Source: Gammaproteobacteria bacterium (GTDB lineage Bacteria > Pseudomonadota > Gammaproteobacteria > CAJXQU01). Taken from it: a stretch of 64,000 bases of DNA. Shown piece after piece: positions 14,263 through 19,851 of the stretch. The notes beneath the pieces are model-generated. The model saw only the letters and a list, made by a program, of their open reading frames with translations. It was not told where the DNA came from and ran no database searches. How positions within the stretch are numbered: the stretch's first letter is position 1; each line of letters opens with the position of its first letter. The stretch is from the NCBI GenBank assembly GCA_965238175.1, contig CBDEGZ010000003.1:928001-992000 (forward strand), in the 5' to 3' direction. The translations under genes were made by a program, and so were the position numbers.

Positions 14263-15537
14263 ATGAAGATTGAAACACTTGCAATACATGCCGGATATGA
14301 ACCGGACCCAACAACAAAAGCAGTCGCTGTACCGATTTATCAAACTACATCCTACGCATTCGATAACACTCAGCATGGGGCGGATCTTTTTGATCTAAAA
14401 GTTGAGGGTAATATCTATACCCGAATAATGAATCCAACAACTGCGGTTTTGGAGCAGCGCGTAGCAGCAATGGAAGGTGGTATAGGTGGGCTCGGATTAA
14501 GCTCTGGTATGTCAGCGATCACATATTCGATTATGACACTTGCGCAGGGTGGATCTAATATTATTAGTACGTCTACACTTTACGGCGGAACATACAATTT
14601 ATTTGCTCATACATTGCCGCAATATGGAATTGATGTTCGTTTTGCAGCTTCTTCTGATCTGGACAAAATGGCTTCCTTAATCGATGAAAATACCAGAGCA
14701 ATCTTCTGCGAATCTATTGGGAATCCAGCAGGGAATGTCGTTGATATCGAAGCGATTTCCGAAATGGCTCACAGTCATGGTATTCCAGTTATTGTTGATA
14801 ATACAGTTCCTACGCCGTATTTATGTCAACCGATTAATTGGGGTTGCGATATTATCGTGCACTCTCTGACAAAATATATGGGTGGTCATGGAACCAGCAT
14901 TGGTGGTGTATTAGTAGATTCAGGTAAATTTGATTGGTCGGCAAACAAAGAACGGTTTGCATGCCTGAATGAACCTGATCCTTCCTATCATGGTGTGGTC
15001 TATACAGAAGCATTAGGACCAGCGGCATATATAGGTCGAGCGCGTGTGGTGCCACTGCGTAATATGGGAGCAGCAATTTCACCAATGAACAGCTTCCAGA
15101 TCCTTCAAGGTATCGAAACGCTACCTGTAAGAATGGATAGACATTGTGAAAATGCACTCGCGGCGGCAAAATATTTGCGTGATCTGCCACAAGTTGAATG
15201 GGTGAACTATTCTGGTTTGGATGATCATCCAGATCATGAGTTGGTTCAAAAATATATGGGTGGCCGGGCTGCCGGTCTTTTGTGTTTTGGAATTAAAGGC
15301 GGCAAAGAAGCAGGTGCAAAATTTATTGATGCACTGAAATTGATCACACGACTGGTTAATATTGGTGATGCAAAATCCTTAGCTTGTCATCCTGCCAGCA
15401 CAACTCATAGACAATTATCAGAAGACGAATTAGCAACCGCTGGCGTTAGTGAAGATTTGGTTAGACTTTCTATTGGTATAGAACATATTGACGATATTAT
15501 TGAGGATATTGAGCAGGCCCTAGCTGCAGCAAAATAA
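14263..15537 (+). CDS. metY: O-acetylhomoserine/O-acetylserine sulfhydrylase
   Basis: PIYQTTSY, IYTRIMNPT, HSLTKYMGGHG (PLP lysine) and HPASTTHRQL; ATG at 14263 follows GGAG. Confidence 0.93.
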   Translation: MKIETLAIHAGYEPDPTTKAVAVPIYQTTSYAFDNTQHGADLFDLKVEGNIYTRIMNPTTAVLEQRVAAMEGGIGGLGLSSGMSAITYSIMTLAQGGSNIISTSTLYGGTYNLFAHTLPQYGIDVRFAASSDLDKMASLIDENTRAIFCESIGNPAGNVVDIEAISEMAHSHGIPVIVDNTVPTPYLCQPINWGCDIIVHSLTKYMGGHGTSIGGVLVDSGKFDWSANKERFACLNEPDPSYHGVVYTEALGPAAYIGRARVVPLRNMGAAISPMNSFQILQGIETLPVRMDRHCENALAAAKYLRDLPQVEWVNYSGLDDHPDHELVQKYMGGRAAGLLCFGIKGGKEAGAKFIDALKLITRLVNIGDAKSLACHPASTTHRQLSEDELATAGVSEDLVRLSIGIEHIDDIIEDIEQALAAAK

Positions 15538-16469
15538 TGCAAAAAACGTTTTTTTTGATTGTAGTTCTATTAAGTGTACCCGCTTTGGCGATTGATGCCG
15601 AAACAGGTGCGCAGTATGCTGCAAAAGGAGATTATGCAACGGCATATAATATTTGGAAGGTTTTTGCTGAGGAAGGTGATCCACTGTCGCAGTTCTATTT
15701 GGGTGTTTTGTACGAAAAAGGTAGTGGTGTAGAAAAAGACTATCCACAAGCATTATTCTGGTATATCAAATCAGCCGAACAAGGTGTCGCAAAAGCAAGC
15801 TATAACATCGGTAATATGTTTTTTAATGGTCGTGGCGTAAGTCGGGATTATAAGGAAGCTGAACGGCGTTTTAGGCTTGCTGCCGAGCTGAACTACCCAC
15901 CTGCACAATATAATCTTGCTTACACCTTAGACAAAAGTTTAAATGGCGAAAAAAATCCAACAGAAGTATTTAACTGGTATTTAAAAGCAGCTAAAAATGG
16001 TGTGCAAAAAGCAAAATCTAAAGTTGGTAAAATGTATGAGGTTGGTATTGGTGCTGCACAGGATAAAGAAAAAGCGATCTACTGGTACGAAAAAGTTGTG
16101 AGTAAAGATCCTGAGATCCGGATCCGTTTAGCCAAACTATATCTTGATGATCAAAATCGGGTGGAAGAAGGGATCCGTTTATTACGATCAAGTGCTGAAA
16201 ACGGCGATAAACTAGCCCAGTATCAACTTGGTTATCTTTATGGGCAAGGAGAAAAAGTTAAGCAGGATTATGAGCAAGCCACTTTTTGGTATAAACGTGC
16301 AGCGAAACAACAAGTCCCTGAAGCACAATATCTTTTATGTCTTTCCTACTCCTTAGGCAAAGGTGTCCCAGTGGATATGGCCGTAGCCCAAGCCTGGTGT
16401 GAGGCAGCTGTAATAAACAAAGCAGAAGGTGCCGAAGAAGCGTTAAAAGAGATCAAAGAGTCGCGATGA
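15537..16469 (+). CDS. Secreted Sel1-like repeat protein
   Basis: Signal peptide and repeated AQY.LG..Y..G.GV..D...A..WY..AA units. Confidence 0.9.
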   Translation: MQKTFFLIVVLLSVPALAIDAETGAQYAAKGDYATAYNIWKVFAEEGDPLSQFYLGVLYEKGSGVEKDYPQALFWYIKSAEQGVAKASYNIGNMFFNGRGVSRDYKEAERRFRLAAELNYPPAQYNLAYTLDKSLNGEKNPTEVFNWYLKAAKNGVQKAKSKVGKMYEVGIGAAQDKEKAIYWYEKVVSKDPEIRIRLAKLYLDDQNRVEEGIRLLRSSAENGDKLAQYQLGYLYGQGEKVKQDYEQATFWYKRAAKQQVPEAQYLLCLSYSLGKGVPVDMAVAQAWCEAAVINKAEGAEEALKEIKESR

Positions 16470-16555
16470 TAATTGAGTAGATCAAAGGAGTGGCTATACT
16501 TGCACTAATGTTGAACCAAGAATAATAGAAGATTCGTTGAGTAAATTATTATTTC

Positions 16556-16634
16556 GTAGGGCAGCTTACTAGTGCATGGATGCACGTAGTTAGAACAATG
16601 CGGGGGCAATTGTTGAGCGCAGCGTAAGCCGGCA
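16556..16634. repeat. GTAG-type REP-like palindrome with an internal insert
   Basis: GTAGGGCAGCTTAC ... GCGCAGCGTAAGCCG arms enclosing the hairpin GTGCA-TGGA-TGCAC. Confidence 0.45.
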
Positions 16635-16746
16635 TTTAATCTTAATGAATAGAGCTGTGTTTAGTTTCGTGGTTCTGGTTAGATATAGCGTAATTTAGGA
16701 TAGATGGTGGCTGCATATTTAGGCTCTTAAATAAGTTCCATTGACG

Positions 16747-17211
16747 CTATTGTCCCGTTCGTCGGATCAATTCCATAATCTCTTCACGCAGTAGTAGGTC
16801 AGACAAAATGCTGTCATCTGCGCAAAGCAATTGTATATCCAATCCCTCTCTTCGCGCTATAAAGGAAGTCTTATGTAAAGTGCCAGAGACGCCGTTTATA
16901 ATGGAGGTGTCTGCTTTCACCATACCTAACAGGAACGCCGCTTGATCTGTTTTTTTCGAACCATCAATTATGGTTATCTCATAGTATTGCCGAGATAAAC
17001 GCAAAGCTATAGCCTCTGATCGCTTTCCTAGTGCAACCTTTGACTCAATAGATTTGTCTTCTATTTCAGCCATATCAATATGTTCGACAGCGTCCTCAAT
17101 GAGTGTCGGCGGTAAGCATGCCGTTGTTGCAGCTATAGGCCACAGTACAAAACAGATTAGTGTTAACTGTTTAGATATTATCTTCATTGAGGAATTATAT
17201 GCGTTTTCCAT
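16747..17211 (-). CDS. Hypothetical exported protein
   Basis: 154-aa ORF with a signal-like N-terminus; no recognisable motif. Confidence 0.55.
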   Translation of the reverse strand: MENAYNSSMKIISKQLTLICFVLWPIAATTACLPPTLIEDAVEHIDMAEIEDKSIESKVALGKRSEAIALRLSRQYYEITIIDGSKKTDQAAFLLGMVKADTSIINGVSGTLHKTSFIARREGLDIQLLCADDSILSDLLLREEIMELIRRTGQ

Positions 17212-17360
17212 ACCAGACAGCTATAAACTGCCTAATTCACAAATAGGGTTCTAGGTGAGTAGTTAATAAATAACCTGATGTGATGGTCTCCTCCCCCTAA
17301 CGGCATCTAGGTGCCATGATTGAACTGACATACACACAATCAAAAGAGGAGAAGACCAAA

Positions 17361-18374
17361 ATGAAGACTACAACAATCGGGTTAGACATAGCAAAAAACG
17401 TATTTCATGCTGTCTGCTGTAATCAACAAGGGCGTATAATCAAAAAGAAAATGTTAAAGCGAGCGCAGGTACTCTCCTTTTTTCAATCTCAACCTCCTTG
17501 TTTAGTCGCAATAGAATCTTGTGCAACGTCACAGTATTGGGCCCGAGCGATACAACAACAGGGACATCAGGTGAAATTACTACCACCTCAGCATGTTAAC
17601 GCATTTCTAATCGGCAATAAGAATGATTATAACGATGCCTTGGCCATCGCCGTTGCTGCGAAACAACCTCATTTAAAAAGTGTGGGCATTAAATCAGTTG
17701 AGCAACAAGACAACCAGGCACAACATAAAGCAAGAGACTTAGCGGTCAGACAAAGAACCGCATTATGTAACCAAATGAGAGCGCTTGTTGCAGAATATGG
17801 CATTAGCCTTCGTCCCGGCCTAAATACCCTACGTCAATCTATCCCGTTGCTATTAAGTGATGAGAACGAACGGTTGTCCGTTACTTTCAAAAGGATACTG
17901 CGCCAGCTAAAGGAACAATGGCAATCACTTGATGCCTGTATTGCGACATTTGACCAATTGATCATTCAATCGGCAAAAAACAATGCGATTTGCCAACGCT
18001 TACAAACTATTCCAGGGTTTGGGCCGATGGTCTCGAGCGCGTATTTTAATGAAGTGGGAAACGGCGCTCATTATCACAAAGGGCGCGATGTGTCCGCCTC
18101 ATTAGGACTTGTTCCACGACAGTACAGTAGTGGTGGTAAAGAGGTGCTACTGGGGATCAGTAAACGCGGCAATAAATACCTTCGTTGTTTGTTAATTCTA
18201 GGCGCGAAGGCCGTGGTATCAAGAGCCAAAACGAAAGGCGATAAACTGAGTCAATGGATTAATCGTTTAGTTGAGACGCGGGGGCATAATCGAGCGTGTG
18301 TGGCGTATGCCAACAAAATGGCAAGAATGGCCTGGGCTATAACGGTTTCTGGTGATGACTACTCACCGGCCTAA
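17361..18374 (+). CDS. IS110/IS1111 recombinase (DEDD RuvC-like domain plus catalytic Ser domain)
   Basis: GLDIAKNVF, AIES, KNDYNDA, GLVPRQYSSGGK and ISKRGNKYLR motifs. Confidence 0.95.
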   Translation: MKTTTIGLDIAKNVFHAVCCNQQGRIIKKKMLKRAQVLSFFQSQPPCLVAIESCATSQYWARAIQQQGHQVKLLPPQHVNAFLIGNKNDYNDALAIAVAAKQPHLKSVGIKSVEQQDNQAQHKARDLAVRQRTALCNQMRALVAEYGISLRPGLNTLRQSIPLLLSDENERLSVTFKRILRQLKEQWQSLDACIATFDQLIIQSAKNNAICQRLQTIPGFGPMVSSAYFNEVGNGAHYHKGRDVSASLGLVPRQYSSGGKEVLLGISKRGNKYLRCLLILGAKAVVSRAKTKGDKLSQWINRLVETRGHNRACVAYANKMARMAWAITVSGDDYSPA

Positions 18375-18424
18375 ATAGAGAGAACAAATCATTTCAACGA
18401 ATTGCGAAGGTAAAACTAAAGATG

Positions 18425-18570
18425 GCATAACAGGTCAAACCAGCCTATTGAAAACCTGTCGAGCTCAGGGGTAACTAATACCGATAACCTGATAAGGAAA
18501 ATAGGCGCGTAATACATCCAGGTCAGAAGTTGAAAACTTCATTGAAGGCCGTATATATGACAGCAATCCT
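18425..18570 (+). ncRNA. Bridge/seek RNA of the IS1111 element (boundaries approximate)
   Basis: Two internal-loop modules. ATAACCTG (18484-91) matches left flank plus core; ATATATGA (18553-60) and ACATC (18514-18) match the predicted circle junction. Confidence 0.75.
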
Positions 18571-18625
18571 GTCCCTGTTATCTGAATGTTTTATCTTGCA
18601 ATACGGGAGGAGACCATATATGAAC

Positions 18626-19851
18626 TGTAGAAGTTTAGACCCAATCTGACACATCACTAAATCAAGCGGAGCGTAGCGACGCTTGATTTAGTGAGAGTTA
18701 CCCGCTTTGATGTAACTGCAACGTAAACATCAAAACACAAAGAGGTAACTCTCATGATTCATACTAATGACAAAGTTATAAAACATAAAGTTGGTCTACT
18801 CAATCTCGCTGAAGAACTCGGCAATGTCTCAAAAGCCTGCAAGATGATGGGTTTGTCCAGAGATACATTTTATCGCTACAAAGAAGCGGCTGATGAAGGC
18901 GGTGTAGAAGCCTTGTTTGATCGTAATCGGCGTACCCCAAATCTTAAAAACAGAATCGACCCGGCTATTGAAACCGTTGTGCTCGAGTATGCACTGGAAG
19001 AGCCCGCACATGGTCAAACGCGCACCAGTAACGAGCTGCGCAAACGGGGAACATTTGTCTCACCCAGTGGCGTTCGTTGTATCTGGCTTCGTCATGGTCT
19101 TGCTTGCTTTAAAGATCGCCTGAAGGCATTGTCTGATAAGGTAGCTGGTGAAGGCTTGATCCTCACTGAGTCTCAAGTCGCGGCGATGGAACGCAAAAAA
19201 GACGACGATGAGGCTTGTGGCGAGATAGAGACGGCACACCCTGGTTATCTTGGCTCGCAAGATACTTACTATGTCGGTACTTTCAAAGGCATTGGTCGGG
19301 TTTATCAACAAACGTTTGTTGATACTTACAGCAAGGTCGCTCACGCGAAACTGTACCCGACTAAAACACCGATTACGGCAGCTGACATGCTCAATGACCG
19401 CGTCCTCCCATTCTACGAAGAACAACGTTTGCCTATGTTGCGCATTTTGACAGATAGAGGGACGGAGTATTGTGGGCGAGCTGACCAGCATGATTATCAG
19501 CTTTATATGGCGTTGAACAATATCGAACACACCAAAACCAAGGTCAAATCACCTCAGACGAATGGTATTTGTGAGCGATTCCATAAGACGATCCTCAATG
19601 AGTTTTATCAAGTCGCTTTGCGTAAGAAAATTTACCAATCGATTGATGAACTGCAACTCGACCTTGACGAATGGTTGCTCAAATACAATACTCAACGAAC
19701 TCACCAAGGCAAAATGTGCTGCGGGAGGACGCCGATGGAAACACTCATCGACGGACAAGCTATCTGGAAGGAAAAGTTTGTGAATTAAACTTAACCTGAC
19801 AGTCGGTTACTGATAATTGGGTAACTGTCAGATCAAATCTGAATTTCTACA
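18626..19851 (+). mobile_element. IS481 family IS, copy 1 (1226 bp)
   Basis: TGTAGAA...TTCTACA imperfect TIRs; matches the copies at 38251 and 45112; no flanking duplication visible. Confidence 0.93.
18754..19788 (+). CDS. IS481 family DDE transposase
   Basis: N-terminal HTH (NVSKACKMMGLSRDTFYRY); DDE residues in SQDT, TDRGTEY and NGICERFH. Confidence 0.95.
   Translation: MIHTNDKVIKHKVGLLNLAEELGNVSKACKMMGLSRDTFYRYKEAADEGGVEALFDRNRRTPNLKNRIDPAIETVVLEYALEEPAHGQTRTSNELRKRGTFVSPSGVRCIWLRHGLACFKDRLKALSDKVAGEGLILTESQVAAMERKKDDDEACGEIETAHPGYLGSQDTYYVGTFKGIGRVYQQTFVDTYSKVAHAKLYPTKTPITAADMLNDRVLPFYEEQRLPMLRILTDRGTEYCGRADQHDYQLYMALNNIEHTKTKVKSPQTNGICERFHKTILNEFYQVALRKKIYQSIDELQLDLDEWLLKYNTQRTHQGKMCCGRTPMETLIDGQAIWKEKFVN

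Follow-up and report, generated by a model that had tools for sequence, protein, structure and literature searches.

A recently multiplied IS1111-type insertion sequence with a predicted two-loop guide RNA in a gammaproteobacterial genome

We describe an insertion sequence of the IS1111 family in the genome of Gammaproteobacteria bacterium (assembly GCA_965238175.1, contig CBDEGZ010000003.1). It lies in a stretch of 64,000 nucleotides, positions 928,001 to 992,000 of the forward strand of the contig, which we call the window; positions given without a contig name are positions in the window, the others being written contig:position. The element occupies 17276-18620 (1345 bp). It comprises a transposase gene, 85 nt of non-coding sequence upstream of this gene (17276-17360) and 246 nt downstream of it (18375-18620), where a structured RNA carrying guide segments is predicted (Table 1). 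The original prediction for this locus had already recognized an IS1111 element whose RNA guides could be read, and had placed it at 17261-18625. The element itself is well founded; the bounds were drawn slightly wide, as the nucleotides outside 17276-18620 are target flank.

The original prediction was also right in announcing a TG core at both ends (17276-77 and 18621-22), and the stretch common to both is actually TGA (17276-78 and 18621-23). TGA was ruled out as the core itself: relatives of the element have just two bases in common between their junctions, a T or a C followed by a G. We also ruled out TAACC, the five nucleotides before the left core, as a part of the element, because uninterrupted sites containing TAACC exist: empty sites carry TAACCTGAACTCGGG without any interruption. 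Hence, TAACC is target. On the right side, homology among the copies of the genome stops at 18623. When the flanks of the 25 copies are considered, the two junctions have only the TG(A) core in common, and there is no target duplication. The ATGGTCTCC core of the left inverted repeat is kept in most relatives.

Table 1. Features of the IS1111-type element (positions in the window; the RNA, its domains, the guides and the promoter half are predictions)
Feature	Position	Strand	Remarks
Left target flank	17264..17275	+	RNA-read part is TAACC, 17271-75; positions further upstream vary among copies
Left terminal extension TGATGTG, 7 nt	17276..17282	+	Begins with the left copy of the TG core
Left subterminal inverted repeat ATGGTCTCCTCCC	17283..17295	+	13 bp, reverse complement of 18605-18617
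Transposase/recombinase gene, 337 aa	17361..18374	+	ATG at 17361; GAGGAG ribosome-binding site 9 nt upstream (17346-51)
Structured non-coding RNA (bridge RNA or long seekRNA), predicted	18404..18599	+	Span is at least this; fold supported by covariation
Target-binding domain	18443..18506	+	Closing stem 18443-50/18499-506, CCU/AGG stem 18455-57/18495-97, hairpin 18470-73/18479-82
Right-target guide (top-strand match, 'T') TCGAGCTCAGG, reverse complement of CCTGAGCTCGA	18459..18469	+	Internal loop; C18464 opposite target position +2
Left-target guide (bottom-strand match, 'B') ATAACCTGAT	18484..18493	+	Equals left flank, core and first 2 nt of the element; internal loop
Donor-binding domain	18507..18564	+	Closing GC/GC 18507-08/18563-64, stem 18521-24/18547-50, hairpin 18526-29/18537-40
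Left-end guide TACATC, reverse complement of GATGTA	18513..18518	+	Compare left end G-ATGTG; covariation at position 6
Right-end plus core guide ATATATGA	18553..18560	+	Covariation at the core base
TTGCAA, putative -35 half of the circle-junction promoter	18596..18601	+	17-nt spacer, then TA+TG+AT; also 3' strand of the outer RNA stem
Right subterminal inverted repeat GGGAGGAGACCAT	18605..18617	+	13 bp
Right extension ATA (18618-20, 3 nt), then right TG core (18621-22)	18618..18622	+	Right TG is the first target base pair

The mechanical list of open reading frames places the start of the transposase frame at 17316. We favour the start at 17361 for two reasons: it has a ribosome-binding site, and the alignment with relatives begins at residue 1. 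The protein contains the domains PF01548 (3.6e-16, N-terminal) and PF02371 (6.4e-20, C-terminal), both above their gathering score, and reaches 302.9 bits with the NCBIfam model NF033542, 'IS110 family RNA-guided transposase', the cut-off of which is 140. Its C-terminal third aligns with the IS621 transposase (PDB 8wt6, E 2.3e-4). The motif GLVPRQYSSG, residues 249-258, carries S257-G258, and this SG is aligned with the SG of the IS621 transposase; the putative DEDD residues D9, E52, D89 and D92, which were read from the sequence without structural alignment, have a fitting spacing. A plasmid search returned enterobacterial homologues which are only 45-46% identical and are annotated 'IS110 family transposase', and no named close relative was among them. 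These homologues probably correspond to IS4321/IS5075. Together with the domain pair on a protein of 330-350 aa, the element has the other marks of the IS1111 family, which ISfinder places within IS110: long subterminal repeats with a 7-nt left extension, a downstream non-coding region, the GL-P----S(T)G motif, and insertion which is specific for site and orientation and makes no target duplication. As far as sequence can tell, the element agrees with the family in every feature, and the mechanism would be one already known. The assignment to IS110/IS1111 is thereby upheld: PF01548 and PF02371 are present, NF033542 is above its cut-off, and the anatomy is as in Siddiquee et al. (PMC11187229).

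The genome (3.35 Mb, about 40% G+C) contains 25 near-identical copies of the element, one of them cut by the start of a contig. The transposase frame is open in all 25 copies and the internal sequence is identical in 22 of the 24 full copies, the other two having one single-nucleotide polymorphism each; this speaks for very recent movement. Six other genomes of the host genus, which represent the whole family in the collection, were compared: five are without any match to the element, and the sixth (480 contigs) has two partial matches, an 84%-identical right end of 195 nt at a contig edge and a stretch of 27 nt. Given this scarcity of matches in the same genus, the burst of copies looks lineage-specific and recent. 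In short, the element at 17276-18620 is an IS1111-type insertion sequence, intact-looking, which has multiplied recently.

Other copies sitting in unrelated targets would have spoken against guided insertion; this is not what the copies show. The left flank is TAACC-TG in 24 copies out of 25 and AAACC-TG in the remaining one. The right flanks begin with TGA in all the 24 readable copies and have the consensus TGAACTCGGGATAAG; after TG, the counts (n=24) are A 24, then A 19 or G 3, C 16, T 22, C 17, G 14, G 18, G 19, followed by ATAAG. The sequence TGAACTCGGGATAAG is the terminal repeat of a 215-bp element resembling a miniature inverted-repeat transposable element (MITE). This MITE-like repeat, the main landing site, is found at C3:2509894-2510108 and at about 8 more places (for example C3:123565-123768), and its terminal inverted repeats are 20 bp long, TAACCT[GA]AAyTCGGGATAAG. 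About nine copies of the repeat are long, and six of these are interrupted at one end by the IS1111-type element. Empty sites exist as well: TAACCTGAACTCGGGATAAG is uninterrupted at C3:123565 and C3:2865090, with variants at other places. The target ATAACC-TG-AGCTC proposed by the original prediction has to be read accordingly: AGCTC is indeed what the guide encodes, but the common occupied right flank is AACTC. The right flank of the copy in the window, TGAACTGTAG, agrees poorly with the right-target guide because an IS481-family element abuts it at 18626.

Relatives of the element were collected by a scan of one genome per species, which gave 80 loci with 49-78% protein identity, most of them from marine Gammaproteobacteria and Desulfuromonadales. 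For 58 of these loci the two end anchors and sufficient flank were available, giving 54 distinct non-coding regions; L046 and L065 were left out, their regions being truncated in the alignment, so that 52 elements remained, 49 with distinct guide pairs. The RNA alignment (A1) has 51 rows, L090 being omitted as a near-duplicate of L088. The non-coding regions align end to end, with two hypervariable blocks exactly at the positions of the target guides and a conserved scaffold for the remainder.

A consensus fold was computed with RNAalifold on the 51 sequences. In this fold, the two guides of a pair face each other across an internal loop, which surrounds a small hairpin. The core fold has 31 pairs, with 98.0% of the cells paired and 21 pairs with compensatory change; none of 500 shuffles reaches this, and slid controls give 33-39%. 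We then added the outer stems by hand (18404-15/18589-99, 18421-27/18576-82 and 18430-34/18568-72), which enclose the target-binding and donor-binding domains. The extended fold has 49 pairs in 9 helices, with 92.8% of the cells paired and 29 pairs with compensatory change; again, 0 of 500 shuffles reach the observed value, and the slid controls reach 32-39%. Pairing is lowest in the outermost helix, at 79.8%, in a poorly aligned part. The closing, CCU/AGG and hairpin helices of the target domain are 99.5%, 99.3% and 97.1% paired and show compensatory change at 6, 1 and 4 pairs, while the stem and the hairpin of the donor domain are 100% and 93.5% paired and show it at 3 and 5 pairs; the 2-bp closing helix of the donor domain has no covariation. 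The predicted RNA structure is thus conserved among the relatives. Had the guide segments fallen in stems, the original prediction would have lost its ground; they are in internal loops of a consensus fold backed by compensatory changes. Folded as a single sequence by minimum free energy (MFE), the full region has z = -2.78, and the 111-nt target domain has z = -0.47, indistinguishable from shuffles. In the genome, the RNA region was found only within full elements, never as a solo copy.

All four guide segments had been picked out by the original prediction. The segment ATAACCTG at 18484-91 equals 17270-77, and the match in fact extends to 10 nt, since 18484-93 equals 17270-79. On the other side of the target loop, GAGCTCA (18461-67) lies within CGAGCTCAGG (18460-69), the reverse complement of CCTGAGCTCG, and the right-target guide encodes TG-AGCTCGA. 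The B match is positioned 3' of the T match. In the donor domain, 18553-60 is identical to the right end with the core (18616-23), and GATGT (17277-81) has its reverse complement in ACATC, at 18514-18. Elsewhere in the genome, C3:393900-393975 together with 395295-395360 forms a palindrome of two facing TTACTTAACCTGA half-sites 20 bp apart; a copy of the element sits 3 bp away from C3:393937, in the facing half with the poorer right-side match, and the half which matches perfectly is empty.

Three of the four matches lack significance on their own and become convincing only with the other copies in the genome and the covariation in relatives. Guide segments were taken by alignment column in each relative and compared with the flanks of its own element and with those of the others. 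For the right-target guide and the right flank, the mean longest exact match is 6.67 nt with the own flank against 3.04 nt across elements; for the left-target guide and the left flank plus core, it is 5.92 nt against 2.99 nt. In both cases 0 of 10,000 permutations reach the observed value (n=49), in a test which ignores the relatedness between elements, all the guide pairs used being distinct. In L031, for instance, the guide GATCTGAT stands against the left flank gatc-TGAT, and the reverse complement of the other guide, CTGAGGTTAT, against the right flank TGAGGTTA; in L034, the guide TAACTTGAT stands against the left flank taact-TGAT; L035 and L036 have the guide reverse complement ATGGGTATA and the right flank TGGGTATA. 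The left guide of L040, GATTTTGA, corresponds to its left flank, core and A, GATTT-TG-A (gatttTGA), and its right guide, TTGGGGACTT, to the reconstructed empty site, made of the tail TT of the left flank and of the right flank TGGGGACTT, the first two bases of which are the core. A relative from the same genus as the host has the guide reverse complement CTGAATTCGG and an equal right flank of its own, TGAATTCGG, and in several relatives with 50-55% identity both guides and flanks read GTAGGGCG. This shows that the guides of the relatives change together with the flanks of each element.

The donor segments follow the element ends at the few positions that vary. Position 6 of the left end equals the aligned guide base in 51 of the 52 elements (T/T 11, A/A 40, C/A 1), and T is also found in two elements remote from the group of the window element, L079 and L099. 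In the ATATA-YG segment, the base that precedes G agrees with the core of the right junction in 48 elements out of 52 (CG/CG 30, TG/TG 18) and that of the left end in 39 out of 52. Some elements have longer donor matches, namely AATGAGATG in L051 and TGATGTAAT in L057.

The right end also contains what could be one half of a promoter. As the original prediction noted, TTGCAA (18596-601), a 17-nt spacer and TATGAA (18619-24) are in place; at a circle junction the last hexamer would read TATGAT, because the left end continues with AT after the core. TTGC is invariant in 51 of 51 aligned relatives, and 49 of the 51 rows have no insertion between TTGC and the element end, as counted in the printed alignment blocks. 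We found no promoter-like site on the + strand of the linear copy. In the contigs of 4 public runs the element collapses to one unitig of 1352-1353 nt (17271/2-18623).

We hold with high confidence that the element is an RNA-guided recombinase system of the IS1111 family, and an active-looking one. We observe its anatomy, the number and identity of its copies, their site specificity, the covariation of the RNA structure, and the covariation of guides with flanks and with ends. By homology with ISEc11, ISPa11 and IS621 we infer the expression and binding of the RNA, the circle, the activity of the promoter and the chemistry of strand exchange. The mechanism would be the following. The 337-aa DEDD/Ser transposase would bind a structured RNA of roughly 200 nt made from the 3' non-coding region (18404-18599). 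In its first loop, 18459-69 is complementary to the top strand of the right half of the target and 18484-93 is identical to the top strand of the left half plus core, so that together these segments would specify TAACC-TG-A(G)CTCG. In the second loop, the segments matching the left end (18513-18) and the right end plus core (18553-60) of the element would recognize the donor. The element would be excised as a circle joined at the TG core, with GGAGACCATATA running through TG into ATGTGATGGTCTCC at the junction, which would assemble a TTGCAA-N17-TATGAT promoter driving both the transposase gene and the RNA. Finally, this circle would enter the TG of the terminal repeat of the 215-bp MITE-like element, or sites resembling it, in a single orientation and with no target duplication. 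That such a system is 'programmable' and 'intact', in the terms of the original prediction, is what we infer from its sequence.

In a chance test, 18375-18595 was submitted to 5000 mononucleotide shuffles, and we counted those reaching the longest exact match observed: 40 reach the 10-nt left-target match, 701 the 7-nt right-target match, 296 the 8-nt right-end match and 4772 the 5-nt ACATC, which is at chance level. When the window alone is considered, three of the four guide matches are insignificant, and only the 10-nt left-target match is improbable by chance. Several findings weigh against the RNA-guided reading. The MFE fold of the window sequence pairs the two donor segments with each other; it was set aside for the comparative fold. 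A scan of 16500-19500 with Rfam 15, at E values up to 1, gave no family match on the non-coding region, although Rfam may hold no bridge RNA model; the scan returned just two weak and irrelevant matches, mir-630 and psRNA2, downstream of the element. All the 7 bases predicted by the right-target guide are matched at none of the 24 occupied sites, the best agreement being 5 of 7, at 11 of them; in particular, C18464 predicts G at target position +2, but 19 of the 24 copies have A there. The sole genomic site which is perfect for both target guides, C3:393937, is empty. The element ends are near-invariant in relatives, which leaves few variable positions for donor covariation, and in 12 of 52 relatives the core of the left end is TG whereas the guides have CG. 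Finally, no contig joining the right end to the left end was found among the assembled contigs of 4 of 8 public runs over 17100-18800; this absence is uninformative on circles, because assembled contigs drop rare forms. None of the 8 listed runs is an RNA run.

Some of these findings would suit other explanations. The donor segments raise the question whether only the first, target loop guides, the protein reading the ends through the subterminal inverted repeats and the second domain being a scaffold or processing element in which the likeness to the ends is conserved. ISEc11 transposes with a short seekRNA of 82 nt (PMC11187229), and because this form sufficed and presumably lacks the downstream domain, the donor loop may be dispensable in the IS1111 family. 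Moreover, the ends and the donor segments are both near-invariant in close relatives, so that most of their match carries no covariation information, ACATC has no significance when taken by itself, and there is the core mismatch in a part of the relatives. We nevertheless judge a purely target-guiding RNA unlikely, as the variable donor positions do covary, at the core and at left-end position 6, the distant L079 and L099 included. The donor segments also stand opposite each other in an internal loop flanked by covarying stems, which mirrors the target loop, and donor complementarity is reported in the IS1111 examples inspected by Durrant et al. (PMC11208160).

It is more doubtful still that the copies are relics of a past burst, now inert because the RNA is no longer made or the protein is inactive, the matches being historical. 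Such relics would leave no circle-junction contig, would be compatible with every occupied site mismatching the right-target guide while the perfect site stays empty, and would agree with the lack of a + strand promoter-like site in the linear copy. However, a silent linear copy is expected in the IS1111 family, where the promoter forms only in the circle (PMC11187229), and the open frames of all copies, nearly all of them identical, speak for very recent movement. We give hardly any credence to the explanation in which the target-like strings of the 3' region act as DNA, either as internal binding sites for the protein or as captured pieces of target. The window taken by itself offers just an identity between the non-coding region and the junctions at the DNA level, as this explanation would have it, but the helices around the strings are maintained by compensatory changes, a signature of selection on RNA. 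Furthermore, one string is the reverse complement of the target and the other has the same sense, which is the pattern of the experimental seekRNA (PMC11187229).

The mismatch of the right-target guide deserves a comment within the preferred reading of an RNA-guided element. The relatives L033, L037 and L057 carry a T able to pair with A at +2; hence, the guide of the window element is one base off the version which would fit its main target. This may reflect simple mismatch tolerance. It is conceivable, though we think it improbable, that the mismatch is functional: since excision in the IS1111 family needs flanks matching the guides on both sides, imperfectly paired insertions would be 'locked in', while perfectly matched ones would be lost again. 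If true, the mismatch between guide and target would set the balance between retention of copies and mobility. The 12 relatives with a TG left junction and CG in all their guide segments give a related hint. They are L056, L058, L059, L077, L083, L086, L088, L090, L094, L100, L108 and L097; the right junction is CG in 11 of them and TG in L097, and the reverse case, a CG left junction with TG guides, was not found among the 52 elements. Their mismatch may come from heteroduplex resolution at the core or from a left-end guide tolerant of wobble.

The insertion-sequence load of the genome is heavy. An IS481-family element (18626-19851) directly adjoins the right flank; it encodes a transposase at 18754-19788 (NF033577, 279 bits) and has terminal repeats beginning with TGTAGAA. 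The genome has 59 near-full-length copies of it, with 99-100% identity and, for most of them, 7-bp target duplications. Three IS481-family copies, which have no duplication, abut an IS1111-type right end at ...TATATGAAC, and conversely the IS1111-type copy C3:589233 is inside the right end of an IS481-type copy. The 25 IS1111-type copies and the 59 IS481-family copies make up about 3% of the 3.35 Mb. A degraded relative, 72-79% identical, corresponds to two pieces of the element at C3:2357902-2358383, and there are three solo left-end fragments of 45-92 nt (C3:1154707-1154798, C3:2897426-2897503 and C3:1393265-1393349), one of which is an overlapping inverted pair. Upstream in the window, 15537-16469 is an open reading frame of 310 aa with a start resembling a signal peptide and repeated Sel1/TPR-like motifs, as judged by eye. 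A single 16S rRNA gene was found in the genome (C3:3130897-3132437). The small contigs C1 (10,967 bp) and C2 (8,481 bp) have 55.8% and 43.9% G+C, against 40.4% for the chromosome, and C1 may be foreign.

The element is a further, clear case of a mechanism known since 2024, and brings no new mechanism. It adds a natural example, and a well-documented one, to the RNA-guided recombinases of the IS110/IS1111 group, which are under development as genome-engineering tools, and explains a part of the insertion-sequence load of its host as well as the frequent interruption of a small repeat family. Its relatives, about 50 in number and 50-78% identical in protein, form a natural reprogramming series, with one conserved scaffold, many pairs of guide and target, and TG or CG cores; this series could inform on guide length, register, mismatch tolerance and use of the donor loop in the less-studied IS1111 branch.

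In the IS1111 family, seekRNA was shown experimentally for ISEc11, ISPa11 and ISKpn4 by Siddiquee et al. in 2024 (PMC11187229), who describe the downstream non-coding region, the 7-nt left extension and a junction promoter (reported for ISEc11), a top-strand match lying 5' of the bottom-strand match with both overlapping in the target, the sufficiency of the 82-nt seekRNA of ISEc11 for transposition, the need of matching flanks for excision, and natural as well as experimental reprogramming. In the same year, Durrant et al. (PMC11208160) predicted a right-end bridge RNA for 93% of IS1111 elements, and they report complementarity to target as well as donor in those which they inspected. Our element, known here from sequence alone, was set beside the three experimental ones by description. 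It has in common with them a DEDD transposase of 330-350 aa with the GL-P----S/TG motif, subterminal repeats with a 7-nt left extension, a long non-coding region downstream of the gene, the absence of target duplication and a predicted junction promoter. Its target differs from theirs, being TAACC-TG-AACTCGG in the terminal repeat of a 215-bp MITE-like element, but like that of ISPa11, listed as GTAGGGCG in Table 1 of a 2026 review (PMC13604230), it is a short repeated palindromic element. The element also has a second loop, putatively of donor type, with covariation in its support, whereas the portion of PMC11187229 available to us describes no donor-matching segments.

The resemblance to IS621 (PMC11208160; 8wt6-8wt9) lies in a single RNA, predicted in our element, with two internal loops of two guides each, those of our donor loop being putative. 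In each loop of both systems, the core is included in a guide which reads like the top strand, and the second guide is the complement of that strand; donor and target have a 2-nt core in common, and the transposase is of DEDD type with a serine-bearing C-terminal domain, the two proteins being aligned at E 2.3e-4. The differences are that the RNA of our element is in the right end and that of IS621 in the left end, that the two guides of each loop come in the opposite order, that the subterminal repeats of our element are long (13 bp), and that only the C-terminal third of the protein aligns by sequence. The core is TG in our element, unlike that of IS621, which is CT. IS4321 and IS5075, which belong to the IS1111 family, are said, in 2003 work attributed to Partridge and Hall, to target the terminal repeats of Tn21-family transposons. 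Like them, our element goes into the terminal inverted repeat of another mobile element, with a single position and a single orientation; unlike theirs, its target is the end of a small non-autonomous chromosomal repeat.

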